Source of the DNA: Candidatus Woesebacteria bacterium
GTDB lineage: Bacteria > Patescibacteriota > Microgenomatia > UBA1400 > UBA12028
Assembly: GCA_018060955.1 (NCBI GenBank)
Contig: JAGOVC010000001.1
Coordinates: 5,558-69,557, forward strand
Direction of reading: 5' to 3'
DNA length: 64,000 bases
Part shown: positions 11,872 through 39,388 of the stretch, one piece after another
Numbering within the stretch: the stretch's first letter is position 1
Layout: the number at the start of each line of letters is the position of its first letter
Program-made: the position numbers and the translations under genes
The notes under the pieces: model-generated
What the model saw: only the letters and a program-made list of their open reading frames with translations
What the model was told of the DNA's origin: nothing
Databases searched by the model: none

Positions 11872-12099
11872 ATGTCAGCAGTACAAGTTGGAGGGATCTA
11901 TCGACATTACAAAGGCAAGCTGTATTATGTGTTAGCGCTTGCGACTCATACCGAGACGATGGAACGACTCGTGGTTTATGTGCCACTCAATGAGCCAAAA
12001 ACTGCAAGAGCTTGGGTGCGTCCGGAAACGATGTTTGTTGAAAATCTTCACATAGATGGAAAAGTAGTTCCACGTTTTTCTTATGAAAACAGCAGATGA
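11872..12099 (+). CDS. DUF1653-family small protein.
   Basis: GGIYRHYKGKLYYVLALATHTETMERLVVYVPL matches the DUF1653 core from memory. The ORF-track start at 11773 overlaps the upstream gene. The ATG at 11872 follows the upstream TAA directly. Confidence 0.6.
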   Translation: MSAVQVGGIYRHYKGKLYYVLALATHTETMERLVVYVPLNEPKTARAWVRPETMFVENLHIDGKVVPRFSYENSR

Positions 12100-12739
12100 T
12101 CCTTCCATTTTTCAACAATTTGCTAATCAAAGCGGCAAACAACTGGATGACTTTATCGCAAAAGATGTCAAGGTGTATGATTTTGCAGTTGAGCCTCCCT
12201 TTATTACTGTGGTTGGGAGACTCGATGCGTCTAGTGTTGGGAAAATTAAAGCGGTTCAGGAGCAGCTTGAATCTGCTGACCCAAATCAATTCTATTACCC
12301 GGTCTCCCTCTATCATTTGACCATATTGGGGCGGATTCCTTCAACTCTTGACCAAGCAACCTTATTTTCGACGCTCGATGAAGTGTTACGAGAGAAAATG
12401 ACTTTTCATCTAGAAGGAGTGGCAACCAATCAACTTACTTCTTCGGTTTCAGCCTACCCTCAAGATTTTTCGCTCTATCAACTTCGACAGTCAATTCGAC
12501 GGCAATTATCCATTGAGGGAGATGATTACGCAAAACATCTTGCCCCATACGAATATATGGGTTGGGTAAATTTGCTACGGTATCTCCAAGTACCAACCCA
12601 GTCCTTTATTGATACACTGAAAGCATATCGAACAACTGACTTTGGCACCCTGAAGATCTCCACCATTGAGGTGTATCTTCTCCAAAAAAGGATACTCGAT
12701 CCAGCATTCTCGACGTGTATACACACGATTCAATTATGA
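12083..12739 (+). CDS. Hypothetical protein with a possible degenerate 2H-phosphoesterase-like H-x-T-x motif.
   Basis: 218 aa soluble protein with a single HLTI motif and no second clear H-x-[ST] motif. Coding periodicity and tight packing support a real gene. Confidence 0.55.
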   Translation: MKTADDPSIFQQFANQSGKQLDDFIAKDVKVYDFAVEPPFITVVGRLDASSVGKIKAVQEQLESADPNQFYYPVSLYHLTILGRIPSTLDQATLFSTLDEVLREKMTFHLEGVATNQLTSSVSAYPQDFSLYQLRQSIRRQLSIEGDDYAKHLAPYEYMGWVNLLRYLQVPTQSFIDTLKAYRTTDFGTLKISTIEVYLLQKRILDPAFSTCIHTIQL

Positions 12740-14409
12740 AACGACTATCCATCACAACCCTACTACTTTTTATCATTCTCGGTATGTCGTCATTCCTACG
12801 GTTGTATAAATTGGATTCCATTCCGCCATCGTTGTATTGGGAAGAAGCGGCACTGGGTTACGATGCGTATTCGATTGCAAAAACTGGAAAAGATCATCAT
12901 GGGAATCCATTTCCTATTGTTGCATTCCCATCCTTTGGAGATTACAAACCGAGCGGATACTTTTATGCAATTGTTCCGTTCGTTTTTACCTTGGGGCTTA
13001 ATGTTTGGAGTGTGAGACTTCCTTCAGCTCTTGCAGGAATTGCAAGTGTATTGCTTGTGTACTTAATTTGCAAAGAACTTTTCAATTCAAAGTCAGCCTT
13101 GCTTGCGGCATTCTTGTTTGGAATTCAACCGTGGGCGATTCAATTCTCGCGAGGAGGATGGGAGGTAAACCTAGCACTCACTGTTATCTTGGCTGGTGCT
13201 TATTTCTTACTGAAATCCAGAAGAAAAGTAGAGTATATGATTCTCGCAGCGATTTGTTTGGGACTTTCAATGTATATCTACCATGCTGCTCGACTATTTG
13301 CTCCCATCATCGGAATGCTTGGAGGCTTATGGATCCTTCATGGATTCTGGGTGAAGAAGACGCTGAAGCAAAACTTACTTCCAGTGATTATTTCCTTAGT
13401 TGCTGCAATTCTTTTAGTAAGTCCATTTGTCTTACACCTGAATGATTCAGCAGTGTCCTCTAGGTTTTCGCAGACATCAATCTTTTCCGATATTCTCCCA
13501 ATTCAGAAGAGTAATGCCGCTATTCAAGCCGCTGGAAACACCGTCGTTTCCAGATTAACCTTTCATCGCTACCGCTTTTTTGCAGAAGTGATTATTCAAC
13601 AACTCTTCTCACATTTTTCGTTACCCTTTTTATTTTTCCGTGGGGATGGAAATTTACGTCACGGTACAGGGAATGGGGGATTACTTTATCCTATCGAAAG
13701 TGTTGGAATCGGAATTGCGTTATTGATTGGGATTGTCTATGAAGCAAAAAAGCTTCGCGTGCAATTACCACAACTTGTACTCAAAGTACTTGATAGTCGC
13801 GACTACGGTGCAGCCATTTGGGTTGTGGTGCTCTGGATTATTATTGCTGCCGTTGCCCCAGCGTTGGTAACACCGGCGCCGCATGCGTTACGTTTTTTGT
13901 TTGCTGCACCTGCATTTGCAGTCCTTTCAAGCATTGGTATTCTTCATCTTGTGGGTAAGCTTTCGAAAAACATGCAGAAGCTGGTTCTGCTTTTGTTAGT
14001 GGGAGGATACTTTTTCTTTGCTGCACGTTTTCTGAGTTGGTCGATCCTCGCCTACCCAGTGACGAGTGCAAATGACTGGCAATTTGGATACAAAGAACTG
14101 TTTTCCACTTTAGATAAACAGAAGAACGAAGGGGAGAAGGTTTTTGTCAGTAGGTATCAGGGAAGACCATCCATGTACTATCTGTTCTTTTCAAAATTTG
14201 ATCCTTCTTCACTTCAACAAATAGAACCCACCCTTTCCAAAGATCAATTAGAGTTACTTAATGTCGGTGACTATTATTTTATCGATGGAGTGGGAAACAG
14301 CCCTGGGCTTTACGCTACAAGTCCAGATGCAGTTCCACCCCAAGCACAGGTCAAAGCTTTCATTCGGCGTCCCGATACAACGACTGTATGGGTTATTTGG
14401 AGGCAGTAG
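12736..14409 (+). CDS. GT39/GT83-type GT-C membrane glycosyltransferase; paralog 2.
   Basis: LRLYKLDSIPPSLYWEEAALGYDAYSI, and a C-terminal domain (FGYKELFSTL...) like that of 10329. The ATG at 12736 forms an ATGA overlap with the upstream stop. Confidence 0.8.
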   Translation: MKRLSITTLLLFIILGMSSFLRLYKLDSIPPSLYWEEAALGYDAYSIAKTGKDHHGNPFPIVAFPSFGDYKPSGYFYAIVPFVFTLGLNVWSVRLPSALAGIASVLLVYLICKELFNSKSALLAAFLFGIQPWAIQFSRGGWEVNLALTVILAGAYFLLKSRRKVEYMILAAICLGLSMYIYHAARLFAPIIGMLGGLWILHGFWVKKTLKQNLLPVIISLVAAILLVSPFVLHLNDSAVSSRFSQTSIFSDILPIQKSNAAIQAAGNTVVSRLTFHRYRFFAEVIIQQLFSHFSLPFLFFRGDGNLRHGTGNGGLLYPIESVGIGIALLIGIVYEAKKLRVQLPQLVLKVLDSRDYGAAIWVVVLWIIIAAVAPALVTPAPHALRFLFAAPAFAVLSSIGILHLVGKLSKNMQKLVLLLLVGGYFFFAARFLSWSILAYPVTSANDWQFGYKELFSTLDKQKNEGEKVFVSRYQGRPSMYYLFFSKFDPSSLQQIEPTLSKDQLELLNVGDYYFIDGVGNSPGLYATSPDAVPPQAQVKAFIRRPDTTTVWVIWRQ

Positions 14410-14413
14410 TGAT

Positions 14414-14872
14414 ATGAAAAAGATCTCCCGCAAGATTGTTGCGGCATTGATACTGAGTACAGACCACAAACTATTAATGGTCAAAAAGAATCCGGCACAT
14501 GGGGGAGTGTATTTGAATACTTGGCATATCCCTGGTGGGGGAGTTGAACCGAATGAATCATTACCAGAAGCAATTGTTCGAGAAATTTTTGAAGAGACGG
14601 GACTGGTGTATCCAGTAACGGACGTTGTACTTGTGGATGATAAAGGAAGTAATGCTGCAACTAAAACCTTACCCTCTGGAGAGACCGTCTGGTGTGAAAT
14701 GCAGTTTTGGGTGTATGCAGTACAATTAACTCAAAGTGCGAGTGACATTGTTGTCCGGTTAAGCGAAGAGCATACAGAATATGTTTGGGCGGATGTAACA
14801 AAAATATATGACTATGAGCTGACCCCACCAAGCGTGGAATTATTTAAACGAGTGAACATCTCTAAACTATGA
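14414..14872 (+). CDS. NUDIX hydrolase.
   Basis: Nudix box GGGVEPNESLPEAIVREIFEETGL. Starting at the ATG at 14414, just after the upstream stop, gives about 152 aa, a typical Nudix size. The ORF-track extension to 14261 overlaps the upstream gene. Confidence 0.8.
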   Translation: MKKISRKIVAALILSTDHKLLMVKKNPAHGGVYLNTWHIPGGGVEPNESLPEAIVREIFEETGLVYPVTDVVLVDDKGSNAATKTLPSGETVWCEMQFWVYAVQLTQSASDIVVRLSEEHTEYVWADVTKIYDYELTPPSVELFKRVNISKL

Positions 14873-15768
14873 AGAAACGAGTACGCCTATCGGTAGTCAT
14901 TGCAACTCATAACGAGGAAGAAAACTTACCGCTATCATTACCGCCCTTAGTGGGTTTTGCCGATGAGATTTTAATTGCTGATGGGGAGAGCACCGACAAC
15001 ACCGTCAAGATTGCAAAAAGTTTTGGGGCTACCGTTATCCCAATGACCAACAAACGGATGTTTCATCATAACAAGCAGGCTGCAGGAGATCAGGCTAGCG
15101 GAGAATGGATACTGTATCTAGACGCAGATGAGATCGTTACCGATGCATTAAAAGAAGAAATCCTACAGATTCTAGATGGGAACCATCCTTCCTTACAAGG
15201 AGTTGCGACTGCTGACTATTTACCCACGACGGTTCGAAAAGCGTACCTTGCTCATCTTCATAATCTAGAAGTACGTGATCAGAAAAAGTTTCAAACCTCA
15301 CAACGGATCACTGCATACTTCATTGCCCGCAAGAATTGGTTTTTGGGCGCATATTTGATGCATGCTGGTGTATTTCCTGACGGAGTAATCCGATTAGTAA
15401 AAAAGGGAACAGCAGTGTGGCCATGCAAAGATGTGCATGAGACGATGGATGTGCAGGGAGGAGTTGGCTGGCTCATTGAACCCATGTTGCATCAAGCTGA
15501 TCCAACTTTTTCTCGGTATTTGATGCGTGCAAATCGTTACACGAATCTGACTGCAGATCAACTGACCTCTATGCATGTTCCGATTAGTTTTTCTTCGTGG
15601 ATCTACTACCTAATTTGGAAGCCTCTCAAAATATTTGTCCTACTTTTCTTTCGGCACAAAGGTTTCAAGGATGGTTTTAGTGGGTTCGTGTGGGCACTGA
15701 TGAGCGGACTTCACTGGCCGATCGCCTTTTTAAAATATGTAGAGTCTTCATATACACGAGGGCATTAA
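14869..15768 (+). CDS. Family 2 glycosyltransferase; paralog set A.
   Basis: LSVVIATHNEEENL...ILIADGESTDNT...HKGFKDGFSGFVWALMSG. ATGA overlap with the Nudix gene stop. Confidence 0.8.
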   Translation: MKKRVRLSVVIATHNEEENLPLSLPPLVGFADEILIADGESTDNTVKIAKSFGATVIPMTNKRMFHHNKQAAGDQASGEWILYLDADEIVTDALKEEILQILDGNHPSLQGVATADYLPTTVRKAYLAHLHNLEVRDQKKFQTSQRITAYFIARKNWFLGAYLMHAGVFPDGVIRLVKKGTAVWPCKDVHETMDVQGGVGWLIEPMLHQADPTFSRYLMRANRYTNLTADQLTSMHVPISFSSWIYYLIWKPLKIFVLLFFRHKGFKDGFSGFVWALMSGLHWPIAFLKYVESSYTRGH

Positions 15769-17489
15769 CGTACCGGAACTGGCGATGGAACAGGACTTGC
15801 TAGTGTATAGACTCTAAAAGAATCTGTAGAATTTACCCTCTTAATTGTTGCGACACTTTCTAGTGGACCGGTCGTTGAACATTCACCACGATCCACAAGT
15901 AGTGAGTGTGGTGTCATCTGACTGAGGATTTCTTCGGAGGGACAATTGTTTTTTGTAAAGTGAACATTTCCATACTCCGTCAAGCGAATATTCTTTTGGA
16001 ACTGACCTGCAAGGGATGCATCAAAGGTGTTGGAGTAGAACAAATAATAGAGAGGTTTAGCATCCTGTGGTAAATAGATTTGATCAAAACGATCCTTATT
16101 CTCTATTACATAACGGGCTAGTGCAGTCCGATCATCCCCTCGATGTGCAGTTTGTGAGGAGGGGGAGTGAACGATCCATTGATGCCAGAAATACACACTT
16201 TCTATTCCTACCAGAACCAACAGCAACGTGCGAAACGGAATGCCTTTCCAACCAATAGTTGAGATTTTTGCATAGGCATACGTTGTGAGAAGAACGAAGA
16301 ATACTGACATTGTGACAGTCCGATGAACATTGGGAACATCATCAAGTGTCAGAGAGCTAGGGATTGGAGAAATTGCAAAAAGCAGCAATAAGAAAAGAAA
16401 GGTTTTGGACTCTGTTGACCAATTCAGTTTCGATTTTTGCAGATTTGGAAGGAACGTTACGGAGAGGAAGGCTATCACGATAATGATTAAGTAGGAGTAG
16501 TAGAGTAACCCACTGTCATCTAAGCGATATCTTCCTGGTAATCCCCCTTCAGAGAAGAGCATTGGAAACGAAAAATATGACACGTATTGGTGTAAAAATT
16601 CACGACTGTAACCAACAATCTTATTATGAAAGATTCGAGCGCTGAGTACGTTCATTTGTCCTTCTCCAACTGCTAGTCCATCCAATCGCCCTTGAACAGT
16701 GTGGTTGAAATAGAAGATAGAGGTTTGTTGGAATCTCCCTTGTCCCCAATAGGTTCTTGAAATCGCAAAAGTGGTTATGAAGAAACACAAGGCAATCAGT
16801 GATAGTGTCAGTCGTTGCCTTTTATCTGCACCAAAGAAAATACTTAAAAAGACGGTAAGTGGAGTAACGATTCGATAGCCTGGGTAGAGCACGTATGTTA
16901 GCGCCAGGAAAAGTACCGCAAGAAGGATCGCGTAGGTCGAAGGTTTTTTCTCGTGTATCCACTTTAATAAAAAGTAGACTCCAGTAAAGTACACAGTGGT
17001 TGCCAAAATGTTTTCCGCTGTAGATCGAGATAAGATGATATGCCAGGGTGTAATTGCGATCAGAGTTGCGGCTAAAAGCGAGATTTTTGAATCTTTAAAA
17101 ATGTACTGAGCTATTCGATAGACAGGAAATACGATAACCGCACCGATGAGTGCAATTGGGAATCGAACAGCGAAGGCAGAAACTCCAAAAATGAACGTAA
17201 AAAAACCAGAGATATACATTGGAATTACATTTGGGTAGTCTCCAAAGTTATCAAAAAAGAGCAGAGGCCATTTGTTTGCGTAGAGGTCTTTACCATTAAG
17301 TAAGATAAATCTGCCGACATACCCATTCATCATTTCATCTTCATGGAGGCCAAATGGGACCTGTTCTAAATGAAAGAGCCGAAGGAAAAGTGCAAGTGCA
17401 AAAATCAGAAACAGATGGAGAGCTGGGGATCGCCATAACGGCAGATGTAAAAATTTCATATGTAAGAATACTTTTATTGTACACGGCAT
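15765..17489 (-). CDS. GT39/GT83-type GT-C membrane glycosyltransferase; paralog 3.
   Basis: HLEQVPFGLHEDEMMNGYVGRF and FDNFGDYPN. There are many TM segments and a C-terminal soluble domain. The stop overlaps the convergent GT2 stop by 4 nt. An alternative start lies at 17459. Confidence 0.8.
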   Translation of the reverse strand: MPCTIKVFLHMKFLHLPLWRSPALHLFLIFALALFLRLFHLEQVPFGLHEDEMMNGYVGRFILLNGKDLYANKWPLLFFDNFGDYPNVIPMYISGFFTFIFGVSAFAVRFPIALIGAVIVFPVYRIAQYIFKDSKISLLAATLIAITPWHIILSRSTAENILATTVYFTGVYFLLKWIHEKKPSTYAILLAVLFLALTYVLYPGYRIVTPLTVFLSIFFGADKRQRLTLSLIALCFFITTFAISRTYWGQGRFQQTSIFYFNHTVQGRLDGLAVGEGQMNVLSARIFHNKIVGYSREFLHQYVSYFSFPMLFSEGGLPGRYRLDDSGLLYYSYLIIIVIAFLSVTFLPNLQKSKLNWSTESKTFLFLLLLFAISPIPSSLTLDDVPNVHRTVTMSVFFVLLTTYAYAKISTIGWKGIPFRTLLLVLVGIESVYFWHQWIVHSPSSQTAHRGDDRTALARYVIENKDRFDQIYLPQDAKPLYYLFYSNTFDASLAGQFQKNIRLTEYGNVHFTKNNCPSEEILSQMTPHSLLVDRGECSTTGPLESVATIKRVNSTDSFRVYTLASPVPSPVPVR

Positions 17490-20666: not shown

Positions 20667-21566
20667 ATGAATATTCTTGTCACTGGGGGTAGTGGGTTTT
20701 TAGGTTCGCATTTATGCCGTTCGCTTCAAGAACATGGTCACACGGTCAGAGTACTAGATCGTCACATTAATCCAGAGTTTGAAACCATCCAGGGTGATGT
20801 CGGTGATCAAGCAACCGTTTCCAAGGCGCTACAAGGGATTGAAGCTGTGTTTCATTTAGCATCCTCCATTGAAGCAGGTGAGTCCGTGTTAAAACCCTAT
20901 GAATACACGCAAAACAATGTACTCGGAACAGTAGTGCTCCTGGAAGAGATGCGAAAAACTGGAGTCAAACAATTTATCTTTTCCTCAAGTGCAGCCATCT
21001 ACGGTGAACCTCTTCGTGTGCCTATTTTTGAAGACGATCGAACGATGCCCATTAATCCCTATGGAATGACAAAACTCGCCATGGAAGGATTAGCGTCATC
21101 GTATTCATATTCACACGGATTTACCTGTGTGGCACTGCGTTACTTTAATCTCTATGGTCCAGGTGAAAACCATCAGCCTGAAACACATGCGATTCCAAGG
21201 TTTATCTCTCAAATTAGAAAAGGTGAAGAAGTTACTGTATGGGGTACCGGTGAACATCAGCGGGATTTCGTGTACATTAGTGATATTGTCTCTGCCCATT
21301 TGAAAGCGCTGTCGTTAGAGCAAGGGAAATATCATTACTTTAACTTGTCCGGAAAGAACGCGACGAAAGTAAGTGATGTCATCAAATTATTAGAGAAGCA
21401 TTTGAATACTCCCGCACGTATTAAAAATTTCCCTCCAAGACCTGGAGATCCATTACTACTTTTTGCAGATAGTTCAAAAGCAAAAGAACTGCTGCAATGG
21501 GAATCAGAAGTTTCTCTGGAGGATGGGATAAAAATTACTGTCGACTGGTTTTTACAACAGGCTTAG
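20667..21566 (+). CDS. NAD-dependent epimerase/dehydratase (extended SDR; UDP-glucose-4-epimerase-like).
   Basis: MNILVTGGSGFLGSHL Rossmann motif and a YGMTKLAMEG YxxxK catalytic motif. Confidence 0.8.
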   Translation: MNILVTGGSGFLGSHLCRSLQEHGHTVRVLDRHINPEFETIQGDVGDQATVSKALQGIEAVFHLASSIEAGESVLKPYEYTQNNVLGTVVLLEEMRKTGVKQFIFSSSAAIYGEPLRVPIFEDDRTMPINPYGMTKLAMEGLASSYSYSHGFTCVALRYFNLYGPGENHQPETHAIPRFISQIRKGEEVTVWGTGEHQRDFVYISDIVSAHLKALSLEQGKYHYFNLSGKNATKVSDVIKLLEKHLNTPARIKNFPPRPGDPLLLFADSSKAKELLQWESEVSLEDGIKITVDWFLQQA

Positions 21567-23737: not shown

Positions 23738-24394
23738 ATGAACGTCTTTATCATCATTCCCGGCCATAACGAGCAAGAGTATGTGTCGACAGTGCTTTCT
23801 AAAGTGAAAGCCATTCATTCTCAGGTTATTTTTGTCGATGACGGTTCAACGGACAACACTGCAGAACTAGCAAAAGCCCACACAAAACACGTACTTAGTC
23901 ATGAAACAAACCTCGGTAAAGGTGCCGCTTTAAAAACTGGGTGTGAGTACGCATTTTCTACCCTCAATGCAGATGCCGTTATTTTCATGGATGCAGACGA
24001 TCAACACGATCCTAAAGAAATTCCAAAATTTATCGCTCAGCTTGAAAACTTCGATGTGGTTTTTGGTGTTCGAAAAATGGGTGCAAATATGCCGTTATCG
24101 CGGTTTTTAGGGAATAAATTCGCTTCAGTGTTACTCAACGTGCTATATGGTGGGTATATACCAGATATTCCCTCAGGGTATAAAGCACTGACAAGTAAAG
24201 GGTACCGAAAAGTAAAATGGAAGTCATCTGGCTATGAAGTCGAAACAGAAATTGCGATGCGAGTGACAAAGGAGCATGTTCCTTACGCCGTAATTGAAAT
24301 TGAAGCGATTTATCACGATACCGATAAGGGGATGACGCTCATCGATGGAATACATATCTGTCGCTGTTTGCTAGAATGGAAAGTAGGATTATGA
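23738..24394 (+). CDS. Short GT2 polyprenyl-phosphate sugar synthase-like enzyme (DPM1/GtrB-like catalytic domain with no long C-terminal TM region).
   Basis: VFIIIPGHNEQEYV...VIFVDDGSTDNT...LGKGAALKTGCEYAF...MDADDQHDP. Confidence 0.75.
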   Translation: MNVFIIIPGHNEQEYVSTVLSKVKAIHSQVIFVDDGSTDNTAELAKAHTKHVLSHETNLGKGAALKTGCEYAFSTLNADAVIFMDADDQHDPKEIPKFIAQLENFDVVFGVRKMGANMPLSRFLGNKFASVLLNVLYGGYIPDIPSGYKALTSKGYRKVKWKSSGYEVETEIAMRVTKEHVPYAVIEIEAIYHDTDKGMTLIDGIHICRCLLEWKVGL

Positions 24395-24729
24395 GATTAC
24401 TTCAGATTGTTTCAGTATTGTTTGGTCTATTCATGATGTATACCGTGCGTATTCATCATCGAAAACAGCATATTGATAGCATGGAATATGGGATTTGGAT
24501 GGGACTTTGGGGAGTTTTTATTTTCTTGGCAATCTTCCCACAAACGGTGAATGGTGTCGTTCAAACTCTCAACATTGCGAGGGTATTTGATCTCCTTGTT
24601 ATTATTTCCTTGATGATCGTAGTATTTCTTACGTTTCTCAATCGAATTGAGCAAAAGCGAATGGATAAAAAAATAGAGCAGCTGGTTCGAAAGAAAGCTA
24701 TCGATGACACTAAAAAAGCCGCTGTTTAG
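24391..24729 (+). CDS. DUF2304-like small membrane protein, often partnered with DPM1-like GT2 enzymes.
   Basis: About 112 aa with three hydrophobic segments and a basic C-terminal tail (KRMDKKIEQLVRKKAIDDTKKAAV). Starting at the ATG at 24391 gives an ATGA overlap. The ORF-track start is 24376. Confidence 0.6.
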   Translation: MRLLQIVSVLFGLFMMYTVRIHHRKQHIDSMEYGIWMGLWGVFIFLAIFPQTVNGVVQTLNIARVFDLLVIISLMIVVFLTFLNRIEQKRMDKKIEQLVRKKAIDDTKKAAV

Positions 24730-25480
24730 CATTATTACTCCCAGCTACAATCAAGGCGTTTTCATCTCAACAACTGTAGAGAGTGTTTTGCATCAGGACG
24801 TTAAAGATGTTGAGCACATCATCATGGATGGTGGTTCTAATGACAGTACTCTAGATGTCTTGAAATCATTTGGTAAACGAATTGTTGTAGAGAGTAAACC
24901 TGACAACGGGCAAGCCCACGCCATAAATAAAGGCATGAAGATAGCCAACGGTCAGATTCTGGCATATTTGAATTCCGATGATTACTATTTGCCAGGTGCA
25001 TTACAAACGGTAGAAGCGATCTTTGAGGAGAATCCAAACGTCCAATGGGTAGTAGGGGATGCACAAATCGTCGATGCAAATGGCAATGAGATCCAATCAT
25101 TTGTGCGTGCCTATAAATCACTGTTACGAAAAATCTATTTTCCAAATTTGCTTGGTATCTTGAATCCAATCCCGCAGCCATCGGTGTTTTTTAGAGCCAG
25201 TGCGGTGAAGAAAATCGGCCTATTTAACGAATCACTTTCCTACACGATGGACTATGAATATTGGTGGAGACTGCAAAATCAGTTTGGTTCCCCCTATTTC
25301 GTAAATACAGCACTCTCTGCATTTAGAATTCATCAGAACTCAAAAGGAGGTAGCAGCTACAGAAAGCAGTTTGATGAAGAACAGCTTGTCGCATCTCGAT
25401 TTACGTCCTCAAGCTTGCTGCTTCACTTGCATGCCCTTCATAACCGTTGTATTCTTGCTGCGTACTCTATCCTAAAATAA
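24704..25480 (+). CDS. Family 2 glycosyltransferase; paralog set C.
   Basis: FSIITPSYNQGVFISTTVESVLHQ...IIMDGGSNDST...YLNSDDYY. It is a paralog of the gene at 38576. Confidence 0.8.
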   Translation: MTLKKPLFSIITPSYNQGVFISTTVESVLHQDVKDVEHIIMDGGSNDSTLDVLKSFGKRIVVESKPDNGQAHAINKGMKIANGQILAYLNSDDYYLPGALQTVEAIFEENPNVQWVVGDAQIVDANGNEIQSFVRAYKSLLRKIYFPNLLGILNPIPQPSVFFRASAVKKIGLFNESLSYTMDYEYWWRLQNQFGSPYFVNTALSAFRIHQNSKGGSSYRKQFDEEQLVASRFTSSSLLLHLHALHNRCILAAYSILK

Positions 25481-25483: not shown

Positions 25484-26431
25484 ATGAAATTGAATAAAAA
25501 GAATATTGTTGTTACTGGAGGCGCGGGGTTTTTAGGAACCAATGTGGTGGCAGAACTGATCAAGCATGGAGCTGATCCTAAGAAAATTGTTGTTCCTCGC
25601 TCAAAAGATTTTGATCTACGTGAAAAAGAGGTTTGTGCCAGGGTAGTGACAGGGATGGATATTGTTATCCATTTGGCAGCTAACGTCGGTGGAATTGGAT
25701 ATAACCAACAGAATCCAGGTACTCTCTTTTACGATAATCTGCTGATGGGTGTCCATTTAATGGAAGAGGCGCGAAAAGCAGGAGTATCAAAGTTTGTTGG
25801 GGTTGGGACGATCTGTGCCTATCCAAAACACACTCCAGTTCCATTTAAAGAAGAGGAACTTTGGAATGGATATCCGGAAGAAACAAATGCACCCTATGGT
25901 TTAGCCAAGAAGATGATGCTTGTTCAAGCTCAAGCCTATAGAGCACAGTATGGCTTTAATTCCATCTATTTACTTCCAGTGAATTTATACGGTCCACAAG
26001 ATAACTTTAATCCGAATTCAAGTCATGTAATACCAGCGCTCATTAAGAAATTTGTGGATGCTGTTGAGAAAAAAAGTCCGGAAGTGATTGTCTGGGGTAC
26101 CGGCAAACCAACCCGAGAGTTTTTATTTGTGCAGGATGCCGCTCGCGCAATCGTCTTGGCAACTGAGAAGTATGACAAAGCGGATCCCGTTAATATCGGT
26201 AGTTCTTTTGAAATTAGTATCTACGATTTGGCGCACCTCGTCGGAAAGTTAACACAGTTTCATGGTGAGATACGGTTCGATTCTTCAAAGCCTGATGGAC
26301 AACCGCGACGCAAACTGGATGTGACACGGGCAAAAAAAGAATTCGATTTTGAGTCAGAAATCAACTTCGAGGAGGGTTTGAAATCCACAATCGAATGGTA
26401 TCTTGAACATTACTCACGCTTGAGCAAATAG
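25484..26431 (+). CDS. fcl: GDP-L-fucose synthase-like (GDP-4-keto-6-deoxy-D-mannose 3,5-epimerase/4-reductase family). It could instead be a ColC-type GDP-L-colitose synthase.
   Basis: [92 protein letters not shown] and [16 protein letters not shown] are highly characteristic Fcl-family motifs. Confidence 0.8.
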
Positions 26432-27660
26432 AGATAATAGTCGGTGTTAATCTTCCAAGTCTTTACCACAGTATGTGGTGTAAATGTATGTATTTCATAG
26501 GCAGAATTTGTGTTGAAATCAGCAGTGGTGTTCACAACGAAGAGAAAATCGTTTGTGCGATAATCTCTCGTAAATCCAGATATATTGTTTACAGTTAATA
26601 AGTAATACTGCACACTTGCGGTCGTATCGTAAGTCGGAGAAGCTACTGCAAAATTATCAAGTTTTTCATTTCTAATGATCTCAAAAACAGCGTTTTCATG
26701 TGTGTAGTTCCAGTTTTTTATCATGCCAAAGGCATGCGATGGGGCAGGCAGATAGATTCTTAGCGATACTAGAAATAGTACAACCATAGATATGGTGAGT
26801 AGTCTCTTTGAGATCTTTGGCGCAAGCATCACCGACAGAGCCATGAGTAGCAGAAAGACTGATCCCATGAAGTAATATTGTGCAAATCCGCCTCCGCTTG
26901 TAGAAGTGAGTTCTGGTAAATGATGGGCAAAAGTCCAGATTGTCTGTAACATATAGAAATTCGTTCGAAATTCATTCAGAATCATTGGAGAAAATCCAAA
27001 AATGGCTCCAAGTACAACAAGGCCATATGCTTTTAATGGAGGCCGTTGTACTGCAATCAAGTAGATAAGAACCAGCAAGAAGAAGAGCACTGCTTGGTAG
27101 TGAAATAGGAGTAAGAATCCCAATACCACCCCAACCCCTAAATACGCAACTTTCCGACCGGTTTTGTGCATAATCCCCAACATTAAAATGAACAACGGTA
27201 GGAAGGCAAGTTGAAAATTCGGATTCCACAAAAACGAGGTAAAGTTAACAAAGAAGGGTAAGAATGCATACAAACTACACCCAATCATCGCTGCTTTTTC
27301 GTTTTTGAGAAAATATAGCCCAATACCTAGTGGTATCAACATTCCGACAGAAAAGAGTGTGAATGCATACGAGGACGCGATTGGCTCAAAACCACCGAGA
27401 AGCAAGAAAAAAAGATAAACGTAGAAAATGACGGAACTTTGAAAAATTACTTTTCCTTGGTACTCAAAAGATGTTCGAGGTCCCACAAGGGTAATCTTTT
27501 TTTGGGTCCATAGTTCATGAGCTCGAAGACCAAACACACCCTGATCCGTTGAGAAGTTCACTCTATTTGGATAGTGTAGTGATCGGATGAGTATTGCACC
27601 CAGACCGATGCATACAAAGATTAGAACTGTGAAGTTTAGTTTCAAAAACACTTTTCTCAT
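26410..27660 (-). CDS. Polytopic membrane protein, GT-C-like; 'GDLxxxGPxxS' paralog family.
   Basis: [38 protein letters not shown]. The 3' end overlaps the fcl stop by 22 nt, convergent. Confidence 0.75.
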
Positions 27661-27665: not shown

Positions 27666-29327
27666 TTAGGGATGGAATACACCATTTAGTCTTTTAGATT
27701 CATCCAACGAATAGGAATAGTTTGATAGTACTGAAGGATCAACAACACAAGGAAATAATGCTACTCCACATCGATCATCCCCGTACACTGGAGTGGTATA
27801 GGGTAATGGCGCGTCTGGACGCTGCTGATATGTCGCTGCCTTGTTGTAAATCGTTTCTACTGGATAAATAAGCTGACTTTTTCGTAATGGAGGGGAAAAC
27901 TCTTTTACAGAGGCAAGAAGAGCAAGCGAAAACAAAATAATTTGTAAAAAATACATTCCAATTTTTGGAATTCTAACTATTCGTTGAAATTGTGACAGAA
28001 TTGCTGCAACAAATAGCGCCAAAAAAGATAGAACCAGCGGCCAAAGGAGTCGAAAATCCGGAGCTGTCTTGTAGGCTGCAATAGTAATTGCAACTTGAGT
28101 CACTAGAGCGATGGTTTCTCTGGACATGATCGTCGACTGTGCTTTTTTTCTCTTTACTACCACTACCAAAATGCAAAGAAGTAGTATTGCCACAATAAGA
28201 ATAATCCAAATTTCAGTTGGAATGGTACGGATAAACATGGAGCTAAACCATACAGTTTCCGAATGAATTGATGGTTGATTAGGATTGTGCCGAGCCCAGG
28301 TATATACAGTGTCTGTATACTCAGCTACTTGGACTGGAGAGAGTGCATTTTGAACTGGCATGCAGGTCTGTTTAATCGGAAACAAAAAACATCCTGATAC
28401 AACAAATGAATAGGCAGACCAGATAATCATTGGGAGTAGAGTAGCGATCCGCGTACGTGGACGAGAGAAAAATGACGGAAGTTGATTTGAAAATAGATGC
28501 GTTCGATACAGTGACTCCAGGATACAAATAAGAGCGAAGGGAAAAAAGAGAACCATGGATATTTTGGTTGTAATACCGAGAAAAAATGCGAGCATGATCA
28601 AAAGACGCCGCTGCTCTAAAAATCCATAGAGGAGCAAGCTGGTCCATATAAAGAGAACAAGTTCTGGGGCTAGGGTAGAGAGGAGAGAAGTCTTCAAAAC
28701 GATGAATAGGAAAGTCAAGCTGAAGAACAGAAACAGCTGACTAGTGGATACAAATTCTTCTTGGTTCTTTTGGGAGTATTTTTCAAAAAAAACAACTAAT
28801 CCAAACATTATAACAAAAAAGACTGAAGGCAAATTAAAACTAGATAGTGTAGGAAGAGATGCTTGCAGAGTTGAAAATACAAATGGAAGACTGGTGGAGG
28901 CCAATCGAATATGCAGTAACGCAAGTCCAGAAACGATAGGGGATTGTGTGATGTTGATAACCGCAGGGATATGGTAGAGAAGAGAGTCATACCAGGTTGT
29001 GGGGAAACTACCAACATAGGCGATAGCGGCTGCAAAACATGATAGCAGTAGCAGTTTTAGGCCATTTTTCTCAACTAGAATTCTCAGTGACGTTGGATTG
29101 AGTAAATGTCGTTGAGAATAAAATAAAATAGTTGCTGGTAGAAGTATGATAAGTCCACTGCTCAAACCTGTAATTGGAATGAAAAAGTTTACAAACAGGA
29201 CCACAGAAAAAAGGAGTCCAATCCCAAGTAGTAATCGCTCAGTTTTGGGTAGTGTAGAATCAACCCAGGTTCCCATCGAAATGGCCGATGCAACCAAGAG
29301 CATTGATAGTATCCAAAGTACTAGCAT
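27666..29327 (-). CDS. Polytopic membrane protein, function unknown; a candidate Wzy-like polymerase, ligase or GT-C.
   Basis: 553 aa, extremely hydrophobic with at least 12 helices. It sits in an operon with the gene at 26410. Confidence 0.7.
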   Translation of the reverse strand: MLVLWILSMLLVASAISMGTWVDSTLPKTERLLLGIGLLFSVVLFVNFFIPITGLSSGLIILLPATILFYSQRHLLNPTSLRILVEKNGLKLLLLSCFAAAIAYVGSFPTTWYDSLLYHIPAVINITQSPIVSGLALLHIRLASTSLPFVFSTLQASLPTLSSFNLPSVFFVIMFGLVVFFEKYSQKNQEEFVSTSQLFLFFSLTFLFIVLKTSLLSTLAPELVLFIWTSLLLYGFLEQRRLLIMLAFFLGITTKISMVLFFPFALICILESLYRTHLFSNQLPSFFSRPRTRIATLLPMIIWSAYSFVVSGCFLFPIKQTCMPVQNALSPVQVAEYTDTVYTWARHNPNQPSIHSETVWFSSMFIRTIPTEIWIILIVAILLLCILVVVVKRKKAQSTIMSRETIALVTQVAITIAAYKTAPDFRLLWPLVLSFLALFVAAILSQFQRIVRIPKIGMYFLQIILFSLALLASVKEFSPPLRKSQLIYPVETIYNKAATYQQRPDAPLPYTTPVYGDDRCGVALFPCVVDPSVLSNYSYSLDESKRLNGVFHP

Positions 29328-29344
29328 GGGAGTTAGTATATCGT

Positions 29345-30280
29345 ATGAGTTTGCAATGGTTATGGAGAATTATTGCAGGAGCACTACTTGTCGTAGTCTG
29401 TCTCTGTGCCTTCTTTATTCCTCAAGTAAACTTTTTGTTGCTCTCTCTACTCTTTCTTATAATCGTTGTTGCGTTGGCAAATTCGAAGTTCTCTTCGACA
29501 ACACTATATTTTTTTGGTCTCGGTACGATTGGATTGATTCTAGCTCTATGCCTTCATTCTTTATTCCCTCAAATTCAATTGAGTAGATATTATCTAGTTT
29601 TCAAATTATATCGGTTTTACACTTTACCGTCCTGGTTCTGGACCTTTCAAGTTTTGATCTTCGTATTTCCAGGTGTCGACCGATGGAGAGAGTTAGCTTC
29701 AAAGGTCCACGCGACAATCTTTTTTAAACAACGAACACCGCTTACTCTCTTACTAGTCGGAATAGTAATTGCTCAACTATTGACGGTTGGATCTCAGTTA
29801 TTTTCGCAGGGCTTGTACACACTAGAACACCGAAGCTTGCTGCCTACACAACGGTATGCGATGCGAAGGTTCGGAGTTGGTGAGTCTGGTTGGTTTTACA
29901 ATGTTGGGCTGTTTTGGCAGAAGGTTATTCCTAAAACTGATAAAGTTACGATTGGAATACCCCCACAAGGGGATCCATGGATTAAGTCGGGAAATATTTA
30001 CTATGTTCAATATTTTGTATTTCCAAGAAAAGTGGAAATGCTTCAAAGAGATATTAAAGAGGTACCCTCAAATGTAACGCATATTGTCATCGCTCGTGGC
30101 GAAACGGATCAAGGCGATTTTGGATGGCCAACTATGGTCATTCCAAAGGAACAAATAGATTGGATAGATGTCTATAATCCCTTTACCAATGAGCAATGGA
30201 AAGTTGAAAATGATGATTACAATCCAGAAGTATTCAAGAGCTATTATGGAGTAATTCATCTGAAGAGGGGTGAACAATGA
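29345..30280 (+). CDS. Membrane-anchored protein with a C-terminal soluble domain; function unknown.
   Basis: Starts at the internal ATG at 29345 (MSLQWLWRII), which avoids overlapping the divergent minus-strand gene. About 5 TM segments are followed by a hydrophilic domain. Confidence 0.6.
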   Translation: MSLQWLWRIIAGALLVVVCLCAFFIPQVNFLLLSLLFLIIVVALANSKFSSTTLYFFGLGTIGLILALCLHSLFPQIQLSRYYLVFKLYRFYTLPSWFWTFQVLIFVFPGVDRWRELASKVHATIFFKQRTPLTLLLVGIVIAQLLTVGSQLFSQGLYTLEHRSLLPTQRYAMRRFGVGESGWFYNVGLFWQKVIPKTDKVTIGIPPQGDPWIKSGNIYYVQYFVFPRKVEMLQRDIKEVPSNVTHIVIARGETDQGDFGWPTMVIPKEQIDWIDVYNPFTNEQWKVENDDYNPEVFKSYYGVIHLKRGEQ

Positions 30281-31620
30281 CATTTCTGTCGTTTGTATTT
30301 CTAGCTTCATTGCATGGATTTGGATCAACAGTCTTAGGATTATTTCGAGTTCCTCAATCATTGCTTCGGTGTGCGGCTGCCTACTTAGTTGGATCTGCAT
30401 TTGCATCGCTGTTGTTTTTCGTAGCCCTAGTTTATGGCCTAGATATTTATCGATCATTTGGGTTGGTTCTAATCTTTGTCGGAGTAGGTGCAGTGTATTC
30501 CTGGGGATCAATAGTCTATTGGAGGGAGATTAAACAGTTGCTTGTAACCGTGCTACCTCGAAATCGAGCTGAGCAAACAGTGTTTTTCCTTATTGCAGCT
30601 CTACTGAGTTTTGTGATCGTAATGAATTATTTTTGGTCCCACACGGACTGGGATGCCATTACGTTGTATGACTATCGAGCACATGTCCTCTTAGAAGTTG
30701 GCTTTTTACGGCCGTTGTTTAAAACGATTCAAGACATTTACTTATTAAGTTACCCATGGCATACCTCTATTCTATTTCTACAGCAATACATGTTAGGAGC
30801 GTGGAATGGAATGGCAATGTTTTCATTATTACTAGTAAGCATGTTGTTTACATTCTTTAGTCTGATTGAGTCGACCATGGGAAGATTCCATGCCTATATT
30901 GCTAGTTTGGCCTTGTTGAGCGTGCCACTAATTTTTGCGCACACGATGATTGCCTACACAAATTTCCCATATATGGTGTACTGGGGTTTGGGAGTTTGTT
31001 GCTTACTTTCTTGGATTTCGAGTAGAAGATTTGAGAATGTGGCTGTGGGGTCGTTATTAATTGCTGGATCGATGTGGATTCGCCAAAGCGAGCCATTTTG
31101 GTTGATTGCAGTACTACTATTACTGTATGGCTGTGTCACATTGCTGCAATGGAAAGCAAGTCTGTGGCTTCTGCCAATTGTGGGGGTATGGAGGGGTTGG
31201 AATCTTTATGTTCATGGAATTCTTAAACAGGTCTTACCACCTACTTCTGCTGAGCTTGCAACCTATGAAAAAGGCGGAAGTATGATGAGCTCTTTATCTA
31301 CACTCCTAGATCTACATCGTTGGGGAAGTGTTTTGGAGCATCTTGTCCGCTATGCTGTTCCGATTTGGGGTCCTTGGGTGTTATTTTTCATCCTCTTGCT
31401 TCTCAGTCAACGGCGAAGCAAAGATCAACTTCCATTGATATTCTCTGTGTTAGCATCTGTAGGCGCGATTGTGTTGGGTACATATTTATTTGCCAATAAC
31501 ACTTATTGGAGCGAAATCGTTGATTCATTTCAGCGTCTTTTGTTATTTGCATTTCCTGTATTCATTTATTCAACGTTTAATGTAATTAAAAGTCCGAAGA
31601 ACACTTATGTTAAAAAATAA
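30277..31620 (+). CDS. Polytopic membrane protein, function unknown.
   Basis: 447 aa with many helices. ATGA overlap with the upstream stop. Confidence 0.7.
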   Translation: MTFLSFVFLASLHGFGSTVLGLFRVPQSLLRCAAAYLVGSAFASLLFFVALVYGLDIYRSFGLVLIFVGVGAVYSWGSIVYWREIKQLLVTVLPRNRAEQTVFFLIAALLSFVIVMNYFWSHTDWDAITLYDYRAHVLLEVGFLRPLFKTIQDIYLLSYPWHTSILFLQQYMLGAWNGMAMFSLLLVSMLFTFFSLIESTMGRFHAYIASLALLSVPLIFAHTMIAYTNFPYMVYWGLGVCCLLSWISSRRFENVAVGSLLIAGSMWIRQSEPFWLIAVLLLLYGCVTLLQWKASLWLLPIVGVWRGWNLYVHGILKQVLPPTSAELATYEKGGSMMSSLSTLLDLHRWGSVLEHLVRYAVPIWGPWVLFFILLLLSQRRSKDQLPLIFSVLASVGAIVLGTYLFANNTYWSEIVDSFQRLLLFAFPVFIYSTFNVIKSPKNTYVKK

Positions 31621-33883: not shown

Positions 33884-34951
33884 ATGGCAAGAATAGGATT
33901 AAACCTTTTATTTTTAGTTCCAAATCAGGTTGGGGGCACGGAGTACCTCACGAGAAACTTCATCAACCTGTTGAGAAACGACTCCGCAAATACGTACATT
34001 TTATTCTGTAACCAAGAAAACGCTCCTACATTTACCTTTTCTGCAAAGAATATCTCCAAAGTTGTGTGTTCGGTTCGGGCAAGTAATCGGATCATTCGCT
34101 TACTGTATGAGCAATTCATTCTTCCATTTCAAGTTGCAAACGCTAACTGTACATTGTTGCATTCATTCGGATATACAGCACCATTATTTTTGACATCTTC
34201 ATCGATTGTGACCGTGCACGACGCGAACTGGATAGATCATCCTGAAGATTTCACATTTTTCTCCAGAATGATGACGCACTTCTTAGTGTCGCTAGCATGT
34301 CTGAAAAGTAAAACTATTATCACTGATAGCGATTTTTCAAAACTGCGCCTGAGTACGCATCTGCCATGGGCAAAAAAGAAAATTAAAGTTGTGTCACCTT
34401 TCGTTCCATCAGAAGTCTGCAGTCCGCCGTTTGAACAGTTACCAAAGAAACTAGACGGAACAATATTTGCTTTATGTGTGAGTGCTCATTATCCACACAA
34501 ACAGATTCCATATCTTTTAAAGATGTGGAATCAAGTCCATGCCCTTCAGCCTACTGCGAAGTTAGTACTCGTAGGCCAGCATGGGAAAGATCATCCCAGT
34601 GTACTTAAGCTGATCGCTGACCAAGAATCAGTGATCTATTATCCAAAAGTGAGTTTCCCACTATTAAAGTCCTTGTACCATTTTGCTCATGTCTTTATTC
34701 ACCCGAGCATCTATGAAGGTTTTGGGTATCCTGTTTACGAAGCGGGTGCAAACAACTGTCCAGTGATTGTCGGAAAAAAATCCTTGTATCCCAGTAGAGT
34801 CGCATCGAGATTTCTGGAACTGACTTTTGATGAAAACCAGGATGCAAAGCAAATCATCCCTTATTTACAGTTACCTAGGAAATCTATCAATATTCCTCTA
34901 CCGGCAGCAAATGACTCGCTTAAAACTTTGCTTCAAGTCTATGAAAAATAG
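33884..34951 (+). CDS. GT4-family glycosyltransferase.
   Basis: HPSIYEGFGYPVYEAGANNCPVIV. The internal ATG at 33884 avoids overlap with the divergent GT2. Confidence 0.8.
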   Translation: MARIGLNLLFLVPNQVGGTEYLTRNFINLLRNDSANTYILFCNQENAPTFTFSAKNISKVVCSVRASNRIIRLLYEQFILPFQVANANCTLLHSFGYTAPLFLTSSSIVTVHDANWIDHPEDFTFFSRMMTHFLVSLACLKSKTIITDSDFSKLRLSTHLPWAKKKIKVVSPFVPSEVCSPPFEQLPKKLDGTIFALCVSAHYPHKQIPYLLKMWNQVHALQPTAKLVLVGQHGKDHPSVLKLIADQESVIYYPKVSFPLLKSLYHFAHVFIHPSIYEGFGYPVYEAGANNCPVIVGKKSLYPSRVASRFLELTFDENQDAKQIIPYLQLPRKSINIPLPAANDSLKTLLQVYEK

Positions 34952-36743
34952 AACGCATCCTTTTTCGATAGAGAATACTATTATCGCTGTGGGTTTGGTC
35001 CTGGTAGTACTTGCCTATGTACTTTCTGCTTTCTCCTTATTTCAAGTTGAAGTTCTTCGAGGGATCGGCCTCGCTATTGGAGTTTACTTTTTCATCCAAC
35101 TCGTCTTGCATCATCACAAAATATTGCATACCACTGCATTAAGAATATTTGCTGTGTTTGCACTTATCGCTTTTATTCAAGGTTCTTTTTCAGTTCCTAC
35201 AACGACCGATGCCCATAACTATCACATTCCTCGAGCAATCTATTGGTTACAGAACCATTCGGTATTTCAATCCGTCATCCACACTTCTCATGATTTCATG
35301 GGCCCGTTACCAAGTATTCTGTTATCCCTGATGTATAGTCTCACCAACTCGGATTTGTTGTTGTTTGTTCCGCAGTGGTTAGCCTATGTTGCGATCTTCT
35401 TCTTAATCGGTAGACTTGCAAAACTATTGGAGTACTCTTCAAGACAAATCCAGTCTGCCCAGTTGATATCGTTGAGTATTCCAATAGCGACACTACAGGC
35501 AAGTAGTGTTCAAAGTGATCTACTTGTTGCGGTGTGGGTACTTGTTTCGGTTATTTTTGCTGTTCGGTATCTGAAAGAACAGTCAAAGATTCATTTACTA
35601 TTATGTACACTTTCAGTCTTCCTTGGATTTTTGACGAAAGCCACCATGGTGATTTATGCCGTTATTCCGATCGGTTTGCTTAGTTGGCAGTTCCTCAGCC
35701 ATCGAGAGGACAGGGTCAATATGCTAAAGGTAGGAATGATCGGTTGTTTCATAGGTACTCTACTATGTCTACCGCATTTGCTTCAGAACAATGTACTGTT
35801 TCATTCGTACTTAGGTACCAGTTACACCGTGGATGGGAAGAGCATTCCATTTACCGTAAACAGTTTAAGTATTGCTGGGAGCATAGAAAATGTATATCGA
35901 AATATTTTCATGCACATTCCATTTTTGAGCTTTTCACCAATACTTGATTCGTTGGTAGATGGACTAAAGCCTGTCGGTATTTCAATCGACTTATCTGAGA
36001 CTTCATGGTTCAATTCTGAGTTTTTCCATGCAAGTTTGCCTATTCCACAAGAAGATATTGCGCCTGCTCCATTGCACATGTTGATAATCGGGGTAGCACT
36101 AGTAACCGTAATTCGAAGAAATAAAAAAATTCTCAACAATCAAACACTACTATTTGCGAGTAGTATTTGCGCATTTATCGTTTTTTGTATCGTGTTGCGT
36201 TGGCAGCCTTATCATATACGCCAACAGATGAGTATCATCTTTCTTCTGATAGTGTCAGGTATAGGAGTAATAAATCTCTCAAACAGAGCGTTAAACGTAT
36301 TGTGTACACTCTCTGTAGCAATTGGTCTCGTGGTGATCGTAAGCAACGTGTCACGTCCAATTATTTCGTATCAACCACTTCTTTCAAAGGTTGCAGTTGT
36401 GATACCAGAAGGTTTTTCTCCGCCAGAATCAGTTCTTCGAGGTCGAAATGTAGCCAATTACTTTTTGTCACGTCCGTATTGGCAACCTGCGTACATTGAA
36501 ATGACATCCTATCTGCATGAGAAGAACATCAACAAAGTGGGTTTTACGGGAAGAGAAGGTTACGTGTATCCCTTTATCAAAGTTGCATCTAAACAGAACA
36601 TCGTAGTTGTTCCAGCAGCCGATCCAACATCAAAAGTAAAGGTGGTAGCAGGATTAATTGAGGATCAACAGTTAGAAAAGGCACAATACTGTAGTCAAAC
36701 TGCCGATGCAAATAAAGTCATTTGCGTGTATTTTAATCCCTAG
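34941..36743 (+). CDS. Polytopic membrane protein, function unknown; a candidate polymerase, ligase or GT-C.
   Basis: About 600 aa with at least 12 helices. The internal ATG at 34941 overlaps the upstream stop by 11 nt. Confidence 0.7.
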   Translation: MKNRTHPFSIENTIIAVGLVLVVLAYVLSAFSLFQVEVLRGIGLAIGVYFFIQLVLHHHKILHTTALRIFAVFALIAFIQGSFSVPTTTDAHNYHIPRAIYWLQNHSVFQSVIHTSHDFMGPLPSILLSLMYSLTNSDLLLFVPQWLAYVAIFFLIGRLAKLLEYSSRQIQSAQLISLSIPIATLQASSVQSDLLVAVWVLVSVIFAVRYLKEQSKIHLLLCTLSVFLGFLTKATMVIYAVIPIGLLSWQFLSHREDRVNMLKVGMIGCFIGTLLCLPHLLQNNVLFHSYLGTSYTVDGKSIPFTVNSLSIAGSIENVYRNIFMHIPFLSFSPILDSLVDGLKPVGISIDLSETSWFNSEFFHASLPIPQEDIAPAPLHMLIIGVALVTVIRRNKKILNNQTLLFASSICAFIVFCIVLRWQPYHIRQQMSIIFLLIVSGIGVINLSNRALNVLCTLSVAIGLVVIVSNVSRPIISYQPLLSKVAVVIPEGFSPPESVLRGRNVANYFLSRPYWQPAYIEMTSYLHEKNINKVGFTGREGYVYPFIKVASKQNIVVVPAADPTSKVKVVAGLIEDQQLEKAQYCSQTADANKVICVYFNP

Positions 36744-38579: not shown

Positions 38580-39388
38580 AGAAAACTAAAGTCTCAATAG
38601 TCACACCTAGCTACAACCAAGGTGAATTTATTCAAGACACTTTACAGAGTGTTCTTGCTCAGGTGGATGGTTCGTTTGAACTCGAATACATCATTCTAGA
38701 TTCTGTTTCAATGGATGATACAAAGCTGATAATTGAAAAATATCTTCCAAAACTGAGGCGGGCTGGGGTTGGCGTGACCTTTATATCAAAGAAGGATAAA
38801 GGGCAGACCAATGCCATCAATAATGGGCTGTCACTGGCGACTGGACAACTGTATACGTACTTAAACTCGGACGATTTTTATGAACCAGATGTGCTGCGAA
38901 AAGTTGTGAAGTACTTCGAGCAAAATTCTCAGATTCAGTGGGCATTTGGAGGCTGGAATTACGTTAACCGGGTGGGGAAAATCTATTCCGTCATTCAACC
39001 CTCGCTATTCTCATATAACAAGTTATTAGACTATTGTACGATAGGTCAACCGAGTTGCTTTTTTCGTAGCACAGTTTATCAAGAAGTAGGTCCGTTTGAT
39101 GAATCGCTGCAGTTAGGGATGGATTATGAGTATTGGTTACGATTGTCCCAGCACTACCCAGCAGGTGTTATCCCAGAGGTCATTTCAAACATGCGTTATT
39201 ACGGGGGAACGAAGAGTGCATCGAAGGCAAGTCAGCACTTAGTGGAAGCCTATAAGTTAGCTACACGATACACAGCACCGCTATCCTTCAAACGATTGGT
39301 GCAATTTTTCTTCTTCCTTCGTGGTTATGCAGTTATCCTTTTAGGAATTGATATCACACGACGGATTGAACGTAAAGAAATTACCTAG
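38576..39388 (+). CDS. Family 2 glycosyltransferase; paralog set C.
   Basis: VSIVTPSYNQGEFIQDTLQSVLAQ...YLNSDDFY. ATGA overlap. Confidence 0.8.
   Translation: MKKTKVSIVTPSYNQGEFIQDTLQSVLAQVDGSFELEYIILDSVSMDDTKLIIEKYLPKLRRAGVGVTFISKKDKGQTNAINNGLSLATGQLYTYLNSDDFYEPDVLRKVVKYFEQNSQIQWAFGGWNYVNRVGKIYSVIQPSLFSYNKLLDYCTIGQPSCFFRSTVYQEVGPFDESLQLGMDYEYWLRLSQHYPAGVIPEVISNMRYYGGTKSASKASQHLVEAYKLATRYTAPLSFKRLVQFFFFLRGYAVILLGIDITRRIERKEIT

Follow-up and report, generated by a model that had tools for sequence, protein, structure and literature searches.

The GDP-L-fucose synthases (Fcl, WcaG or GFS), with solved structures from E. coli (1bws), Brucella (8du0) and human (FX), are the closest described counterparts of the protein considered here. 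A related enzyme, the GDP-L-colitose synthase ColC, has the same Fcl-family fold and the same catalytic residues; for the Y. pseudotuberculosis enzyme the source is Alam et al. (2004), as cited in the review PMC8987622. In E. coli O55:H7 the genes colD, of the DegT family, and colC, annotated as a 'GDP-L-fucose synthase family protein', are neighbours on the far side of gnd, with the O-antigen gmd about 10 kb away. A further point of comparison is found in S. pyogenes, where GacI, stimulated by the DUF2304 protein GacJ, makes sugar-phosphate-undecaprenol and a GT-C enzyme then moves the sugar outside the membrane (bioRxiv 10.1101/180810). In both the GacI/GacJ/GacL system and PpgS/Rv3632 of M. 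tuberculosis, a polyprenyl-phosphate-type GT2 is followed by a DUF2304 protein, with GT-C transferases nearby; these systems use UDP-GlcNAc or UDP-GalNAc and have no Fcl.

The locus described here can be set against each of these systems. It is part of a 64-kb stretch of Candidatus Woesebacteria DNA, the whole of which we call the window. The sole Fcl-family gene of the window, at 25484–26431 on the forward strand, encodes 315 residues from an ATG start and begins 3 nt past the stop codon of an upstream GT2 gene. Within a known family this gene is unremarkable, and NCBI already names the identical protein 'GDP-L-fucose synthase [Candidatus Woesebacteria bacterium]'; its context is unusual but typical of the lineage. 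Judged by its sequence and its relatives, its product is probably an orthodox GDP-L-fucose synthase (Fcl) of CPR Woesebacteria, a bifunctional GDP-4-keto-6-deoxy-D-mannose 3,5-epimerase/4-reductase. Its surroundings are of moderate interest, with a conserved GacI/GacJ-like–GT2–Fcl cassette and a ColD-type dehydratase in one island.

The Fcl-family protein and its place among its relatives

The protein matches the Pfam Epimerase family (1.8e-54), and its top PDB matches are all GDP-L-fucose synthases, with E-values of about 1e-60 for the Brucella and E. coli structures and 1e-48 for the human enzyme. Residues 3–312 align with 8du0, 1bws and 4e5y over this range of E-values, at 35–40% identity to the solved structures over the full length, and the protein is of the same length as these enzymes. 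Like them it is an extended SDR, with the N-terminal GxxGxxG motif present as GGAGFLG (residues 12–18). Alignment places T109, C111, Y138, K142 and H181 at the positions of S107, C109, Y136, K140 and H179 in E. coli Fcl; the Ser/Thr-Tyr-Lys triad of the SDR enzymes (S107/Y136/K140 in E. coli numbering) and the Cys/His acid-base pair for epimerisation (C109/H179) are thus all matched. The textbook Fcl motifs that had been claimed from the sequence alone are therefore real, the five catalytic residues being accompanied by full-length matches to Fcl models and structures.

The best NCBIfam model, by far, is that for GDP-L-fucose synthase (NF047922), which is matched end to end; its score of 278 bits nevertheless falls below the equivalog cut-off of 500 bits. 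Divergence from the E. coli enzyme is considerable, with 35% identity (211 bits) to K-12 Fcl, and is greater from ColC of E. coli O55 (WP_000698393.1; 31% identity, 160 bits). The two E. coli proteins are themselves 39% identical.

Relatives of the protein were drawn from GTDB species genomes (80 loci, 56–91% identity). Of these, 28 carry gmd, two of the copies being truncated at contig ends; in most of the 28, gmd immediately precedes an Fcl gene whose product is 57–66% identical to that of the window. Most of the 28 lie outside the CPR, in cyanobacteria, Planctomycetes, Chloroflexi and archaea. Many of the records among the relatives (L003–L014 and other loci) are TPA MAGs that, by their gene content and nearest named relatives, are clearly Patescibacteria and yet are titled, for example, 'uncultured Pseudomonadales bacterium'; these titles appear to be mislabelled.

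With K-12 gmd and fcl and the O55:H7 colitose genes as E. coli references, O55 providing the only ColC reference, a neighbour-joining tree of 102 Fcl-family sequences (100 bootstraps) has three supported groups. Clade A (bootstrap 85) contains only ColD-adjacent genes. Clade B (86) contains K-12 Fcl, O55 ColC and several ColD-adjacent genes, and clade C (80) contains the window Fcl, the CPR cassette genes and six ColD-adjacent genes, and is dominated by Fcl genes that adjoin gmd; resolution within clade C is poor. This comparison with the Fcl and ColC clades, which the sequence-only reading had named as a check, places the window protein clearly among Fcl enzymes and apart from O55 ColC. The ColD-adjacent Fcl-like genes are polyphyletic, falling in all three clades, with some of them 54–65% identical to the window Fcl; on the evidence of this tree, they have arisen from Fcl on several occasions. 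Six signature columns of clade C separate the gmd-only Fcl proteins, conserved there to 85% or more, from the ColD-adjacent members, and at five of the six the window Fcl has the canonical residue (A64, G87, N126, P135 and P163).

gmd in the window and in related genomes

In tblastn searches of the 64 kb with E. coli Gmd, ManC and ManB, and with the Gmd proteins of a Microgenomates MAG (L020) and of a metagenome contig whose taxon is not known (L095), gmd, manC and manB were all absent. The best Gmd matches reach 62–74 bits at 22–25% identity, and lie only on two other SDR genes. One, at 20667–21566 on the forward strand, encodes a GalE-like UDP-hexose 4-epimerase (NCBIfam galE, 228 bits; best PDB match T. 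maritima GalE, 4zrm) with the motif SSSAAIYG; in close relatives its orthologues precede the cassette. The other, at 54245–55303 on the reverse strand, encodes a UDP-glucuronate 4-epimerase-like SDR (best PDB matches 5u4q and the B. cereus UDP-GlcA epimerase 6zl6); in this protein SSSSVYG takes the place of the acidic catalytic residues of dehydratases, the dehydratase Asp/Glu being absent, and its true start is probably near residue 32. We considered both as cryptic 4,6-dehydratases and rejected them, on their epimerase-type SSS..YG motifs and their best matches to GalE and UDP-GlcA 4-epimerase.

The sequence-only reading was thus correct that the 64 kb hold no Gmd (at most 74 bits with three Gmd queries), that gmd does not adjoin fcl and must lie elsewhere, and that the two other SDRs are GalE-like and UDP-GlcA-4-epimerase-like. 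Its list of GDP-sugar enzymes stands for the Fcl-like and ColD-like proteins and fails for a Nudix hydrolase (14261–14872, forward strand), the similarity of which is generic. This protein scores 47 bits with NudI and 33 bits with E. coli Gmm, the latter match being confined to the Nudix box, and we found no Gmm signal by which to keep it as a candidate Gmm. It is also not conserved with the cassette at 40% identity or above.

The missing neighbour had further been read as consistent with a split colitose or fucose pathway, and here the wider comparison gives a different picture. The gene order GT2 (GacI/PpgS-like), DUF2304, GT2, Fcl, with Fcl as the last gene, is conserved in 21 CPR loci, named as Woesebacteria, Pacebacteria, Daviesbacteria, Paceibacterota or Patescibacteria, and gmd is found within 10 kb of fcl in none of the 21. 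Only L020 and L024 among the CPR relatives have gmd close to fcl, at 2–3.5 kb. The L020 Gmd, used as a query, finds thousands of close homologues, of which several are named Woesebacteria (73–77% identity), and the complete Woesebacteria genome CP058602.1 carries gmd in an island of glycosyltransferase genes comparable to this one, where no fcl occurs within 10 kb of it. The gene gmd is common in the CPR and is usually unlinked to fcl, and the arrangement in the window is typical of the lineage and no evidence of a special pathway. Among the papers that our literature search covered, none matched on CPR fucose pathways.

If the protein is an orthodox Fcl, Gmd encoded elsewhere in the genome would supply GDP-4-keto-6-deoxymannose, and Fcl, with NADPH, is predicted to convert this to GDP-L-fucose.

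A ColD-like dehydratase and the alternatives to a plain fucose synthase

An enzyme resembling ColD had been noted some 19 kb from fcl, and this proves well founded. The gene at 45202–46380 on the reverse strand, 18.8 kb from fcl and on the opposite strand, encodes a candidate ColD-type PMP-dependent GDP-4-keto-6-deoxymannose 3-dehydratase of 392 residues (Pfam DegT, 2e-54). Its top PDB match is ColD (2gms), end to end with 180 bits, compared with 134 bits for E1, and inspection of the sequence showed no CxC motif of the E1 Fe-S type. Where ColD has His188, this protein too has a histidine, in the motif GHHMSAIEGG (GHH against S187-H188-H189 of ColD), whereas the second DegT protein of the window (50760–51929) has the usual lysine. 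This Lys-to-His change is a hallmark of sugar 3-dehydratases (review PMC8987622). The gene is the middle member of a flippase–ColD–GT4 unit on the reverse strand, with a Wzx-like flippase (46389–47771; Pfam Polysacc_synt, MurJ) directly upstream and a GT4 glycosyltransferase (43976–45193; Pfam Glycos_transf_1; NCBIfam EpsE-like, 99 bits) directly downstream.

Relatives of the ColD-like protein were found at 37 loci in a metagenome scan, and the histidine is kept in every one whose aligned region covers the active site. Five loci (L091, L095, L097, L098 and L099) have gmd-colD-fcl operons, with ColD relatives 50–58% identical to the ColD-like protein of the window; the order is gmd-fcl-colD in L105 and fcl-colD in L100 and L101. 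In L096 (Ga0172375_10000376, 10007–12283), a single ORF of 758 residues comprises a ColD-type domain (13–386) and a full Gmd domain (414–742); a linker of some 20 residues joins the two, uninterrupted by any stop codon. Because its relatives occur in gmd-colD-fcl operons and in L096 are fused to Gmd, the ColD-like family is therefore predicted to act on the Gmd product. To our knowledge, 3,6-dideoxyhexoses have so far been known mainly from Gram-negative O antigens; the gmd-colD-fcl operons and the ColD–Gmd fusion suggest that 3,6-dideoxyhexose synthesis may be widespread in uncultured bacteria and archaea.

Other features of these relatives deserve mention. The L096 ORF is a Rosetta-stone fusion joining two consecutive steps of the colitose pathway, and an SDR gene at 9111–10010 overlaps its start. 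In L122 (about 8093–10594 of Ga0222653_1000192) and L123 (about 1084–3585 of Ga0222676_1000074), the ColD-like gene is split within its catalytic motif (FGHSM and STIEGG) by an insertion of about 430 residues, which matches Pfam Intein_splicing and LAGLIDADG and ends in HN before the Ser, an intein in a sugar 3-dehydratase; an Fcl-like gene lies just 5' of it in both. A GacI/PpgS-like GT2 directly follows the closest ColD-like relatives in L087 (1634–2065), L089 (11163–12717), L092 (2223–2843) and L104 (11187–11753); in some of these, a Nudix resembling Gmm, or an SDR that is Fcl-like but very diverged, stands between the ColD-like gene and the GT2. Such an order hints at polyprenyl phosphate as the carrier onto which the ColD-derived sugar is loaded.

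What, then, reduces the product of the ColD-like enzyme in the window? A ColD-type enzyme needs a 4-reductase, and the window has a single Fcl-family gene. Because the island holds a ColD-type dehydratase without a dedicated reductase, GDP-fucose may not be the sole product; the case for an orthodox Fcl is further weakened by the sub-cut-off NCBIfam score, by the poor resolution of the tree within clade C, by the purely generic matches of the adjacent GT2 enzymes and by the lack of gmd, manC and manB in the 64 kb. It is possible, if on balance doubtful, that a canonical-type Fcl acts here also as ColC, carrying out the C5 epimerisation and C4 reduction of GDP-4-keto-3,6-dideoxymannose, the product of the ColD-like enzyme; GDP-L-fucose and GDP-L-colitose would then both come from this island, an outcome compatible with the protein being a plain Fcl. 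The dehydratase is of the His type, and its family is linked with gmd and with Fcl-family genes, being usually paired with one of the latter. Five CPR loci, the window and L018, L019, L025 and L055 (= L094), have a ColD-like gene at 7–19 kb from the Fcl of the cassette (7–9 kb downstream in the last four), and no second Fcl-family gene was seen in any of the five. ColC activity seems easily reached from Fcl, given the 39% identity of the two E. coli enzymes, and the scatter of ColD-adjacent Fcl-like genes over all three clades, some of them fairly close to the window protein, is in keeping with this. Yet fcl and the ColD-like gene belong to separate operons on opposite strands, 18.8 kb apart, and in 17 of the 21 cassette loci no ColD-like gene is seen within 10 kb. 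The window protein is moreover canonical at five of the six columns where the ColD-adjacent members of clade C diverge, and it shows none of their changes. Co-location is itself weak evidence, because small genomes gather nearly all their glycan genes in one island, and a dedicated reductase could sit elsewhere, as suggested by the very diverged Fcl-like SDR that follows ColD in L089.

The original suggestion, that the protein may be the ColC partner of the ColD-like enzyme, is partly supported: the dehydratase is truly of the ColD type, and no other Fcl-family gene is present in the window, but the protein is not in the clade of the characterised ColC and is just 31% identical to it. That it should be a GDP-L-colitose synthase proper, in a genome making no GDP-fucose, is extremely unlikely, even though the window holds a ColD-type enzyme and the catalytic Cys and His that ColC requires are both present. 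Its clade and signature residues are shared with gmd-adjacent, canonical Fcl genes, and it is a partner of the cassette, in which orthologues of 67–91% identity are widespread in genomes that have no ColD-like gene within 10 kb (one is found at this distance in only four of the 21 loci). Action of an Fcl-like reductase on some other 4-keto sugar nucleotide, independently of Gmd, as for GDP-6-deoxyheptose in Campylobacter, would account for the lack of gmd near most of the CPR relatives and for the score below the Fcl cut-off, and structures annotated as Fcl that we take to be Campylobacter heptose reductases (7anh, 7m13 and 7cxt) do appear among the weaker PDB matches. These score 108–138 bits and cover only part of the protein, however, compared with 208 bits for true Fcl structures; clade members at about 60% identity are classic gmd-fcl pairs, the CPR relatives L020 and L024 do have gmd at close range, and no heptose-pathway genes were noticed among the annotated ORFs of the window (its long ORFs, of 120 residues or more). 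We regard this reading as very unlikely.

We therefore retain the orthodox GDP-L-fucose synthase as the preferred reading. More tentatively than for the window gene itself, and with considerable doubt, we propose that in CPR of the Microgenomates type a single canonical-type Fcl could serve as both fucose and colitose synthase, with both sugars (colitose where ColD has been acquired) entering a GacI/GacJ-like route from which GT-C enzymes would decorate the surface. Were Fcl to have this double function, a 3,6-dideoxyhexose would be present on CPR cells, ColC activity would be latent in ordinary Fcl enzymes, and the recognition of colitose pathways in genomes would become simpler.

The cassette and the surrounding glycosylation island

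The cassette that ends in fcl, a position that sets this gene apart from the usual Fcl, runs on the forward strand. Its first gene (23738–24394) encodes a GT2 polyprenyl-phosphate glycosyltransferase of 218 residues (Pfam GT2), resembling GacI, PpgS and AglJ, with NCBIfam scores of 100 bits for AglJ and 98 bits for PpgS, each below the cut-off. The next (24376–24729) encodes a small DUF2304 membrane protein of the GacJ/Rv3632 type (Pfam DUF2304, 1.2e-17). Both are conserved with the cassette, and the window adds to the arrangement known from S. pyogenes and M. tuberculosis a second GT2 together with Fcl. This second GT2 (24704–25480, 258 residues; Pfam Glycos_transf_2), the stop codon of which lies 3 nt before the start of fcl, has an orthologue directly 5' of fcl in most cassette loci. 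It matches only generic GT2 proteins, and identification as a WcaE-type fucosyltransferase was not kept, TuaG (81 bits) scoring above WcaE (31% identity, 48–67 bits). Further upstream, the 21 cassette loci often share GT2, GT4 and GalE-like genes as well. On the other side, a GT-C (PMT_2-like) membrane glycosyltransferase gene at 26410–27660 on the reverse strand (Pfam PMT_2) is convergent with fcl, with a 22-nt overlap; its orthologue is found in L003.

This context suggests how the product of an orthodox Fcl might be used. The translationally coupled GT2 and the GacI/GacJ-like pair are the predicted users of the sugar, and these neighbouring GT2 enzymes would take GDP-L-fucose, probably to load the sugar on a lipid-linked intermediate. 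Transfer of sugars outside the membrane would then fall to the island's numerous GT-C (PMT_2) enzymes, on the model of GacI/GacJ/GacL, a scheme which the PMT_2 proteins flanking the cassette would fit.

The window as a whole is one large glycosylation island. It encodes about 20 glycosyltransferases of the GT2 and GT4 families, six or more membrane proteins of the GT-C (PMT_2) type and a pair of Wzx-like flippases, besides methyltransferases, acetyltransferases, an asparagine-synthase-like amidotransferase and two DegT-family proteins. More than 60 kb of a CPR genome of roughly 1 Mb are thus given over to glycosylation. The GacI/PpgS-like GT2 and DUF2304 genes (23738–24729, forward strand) stand amid many PMT_2-type GT-C genes, among them those at 12715–14409, 15765–17489, 26410–27660, 34827–36743 and 52783–54258, and this combination suggests that a CPR bacterium glycosylates extensively outside the cytoplasm, with lipid-phosphate sugars as the source.

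Several other groups of genes in the island may be mentioned. Adjoining the ColD-like unit, consecutive genes at 49168–51929 (forward strand) encode a GFO/IDH/MocA oxidoreductase (UDP-GlcNAc 3-dehydrogenase-like), a hexapeptide acetyltransferase and the Lys-type DegT aminotransferase, a trio that resembles the WbpB/WbpD/WbpE route to 2,3-diacetamido sugars. The asparagine-synthase-like glutamine amidotransferase at 39381–41252 (reverse strand) has the XrtA/PEP-CTERM amidotransferase as its best NCBIfam model (515 bits, below the cut-off) and, given the UDP-GlcA 4-epimerase-like gene at 54245–55303, may amidate a uronic acid. Finally, two adjacent proteins of 330 and 447 residues, encoded at 29288–31620 (forward strand), have no Pfam match; in L018, L019, L025 and L055 homologues, at times duplicated, are found again in the interval that separates the ColD-like gene from the Fcl cassette. 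In L025, the homologue of the 447-residue protein runs in frame into the ColD-like gene, which also has an internal stop.
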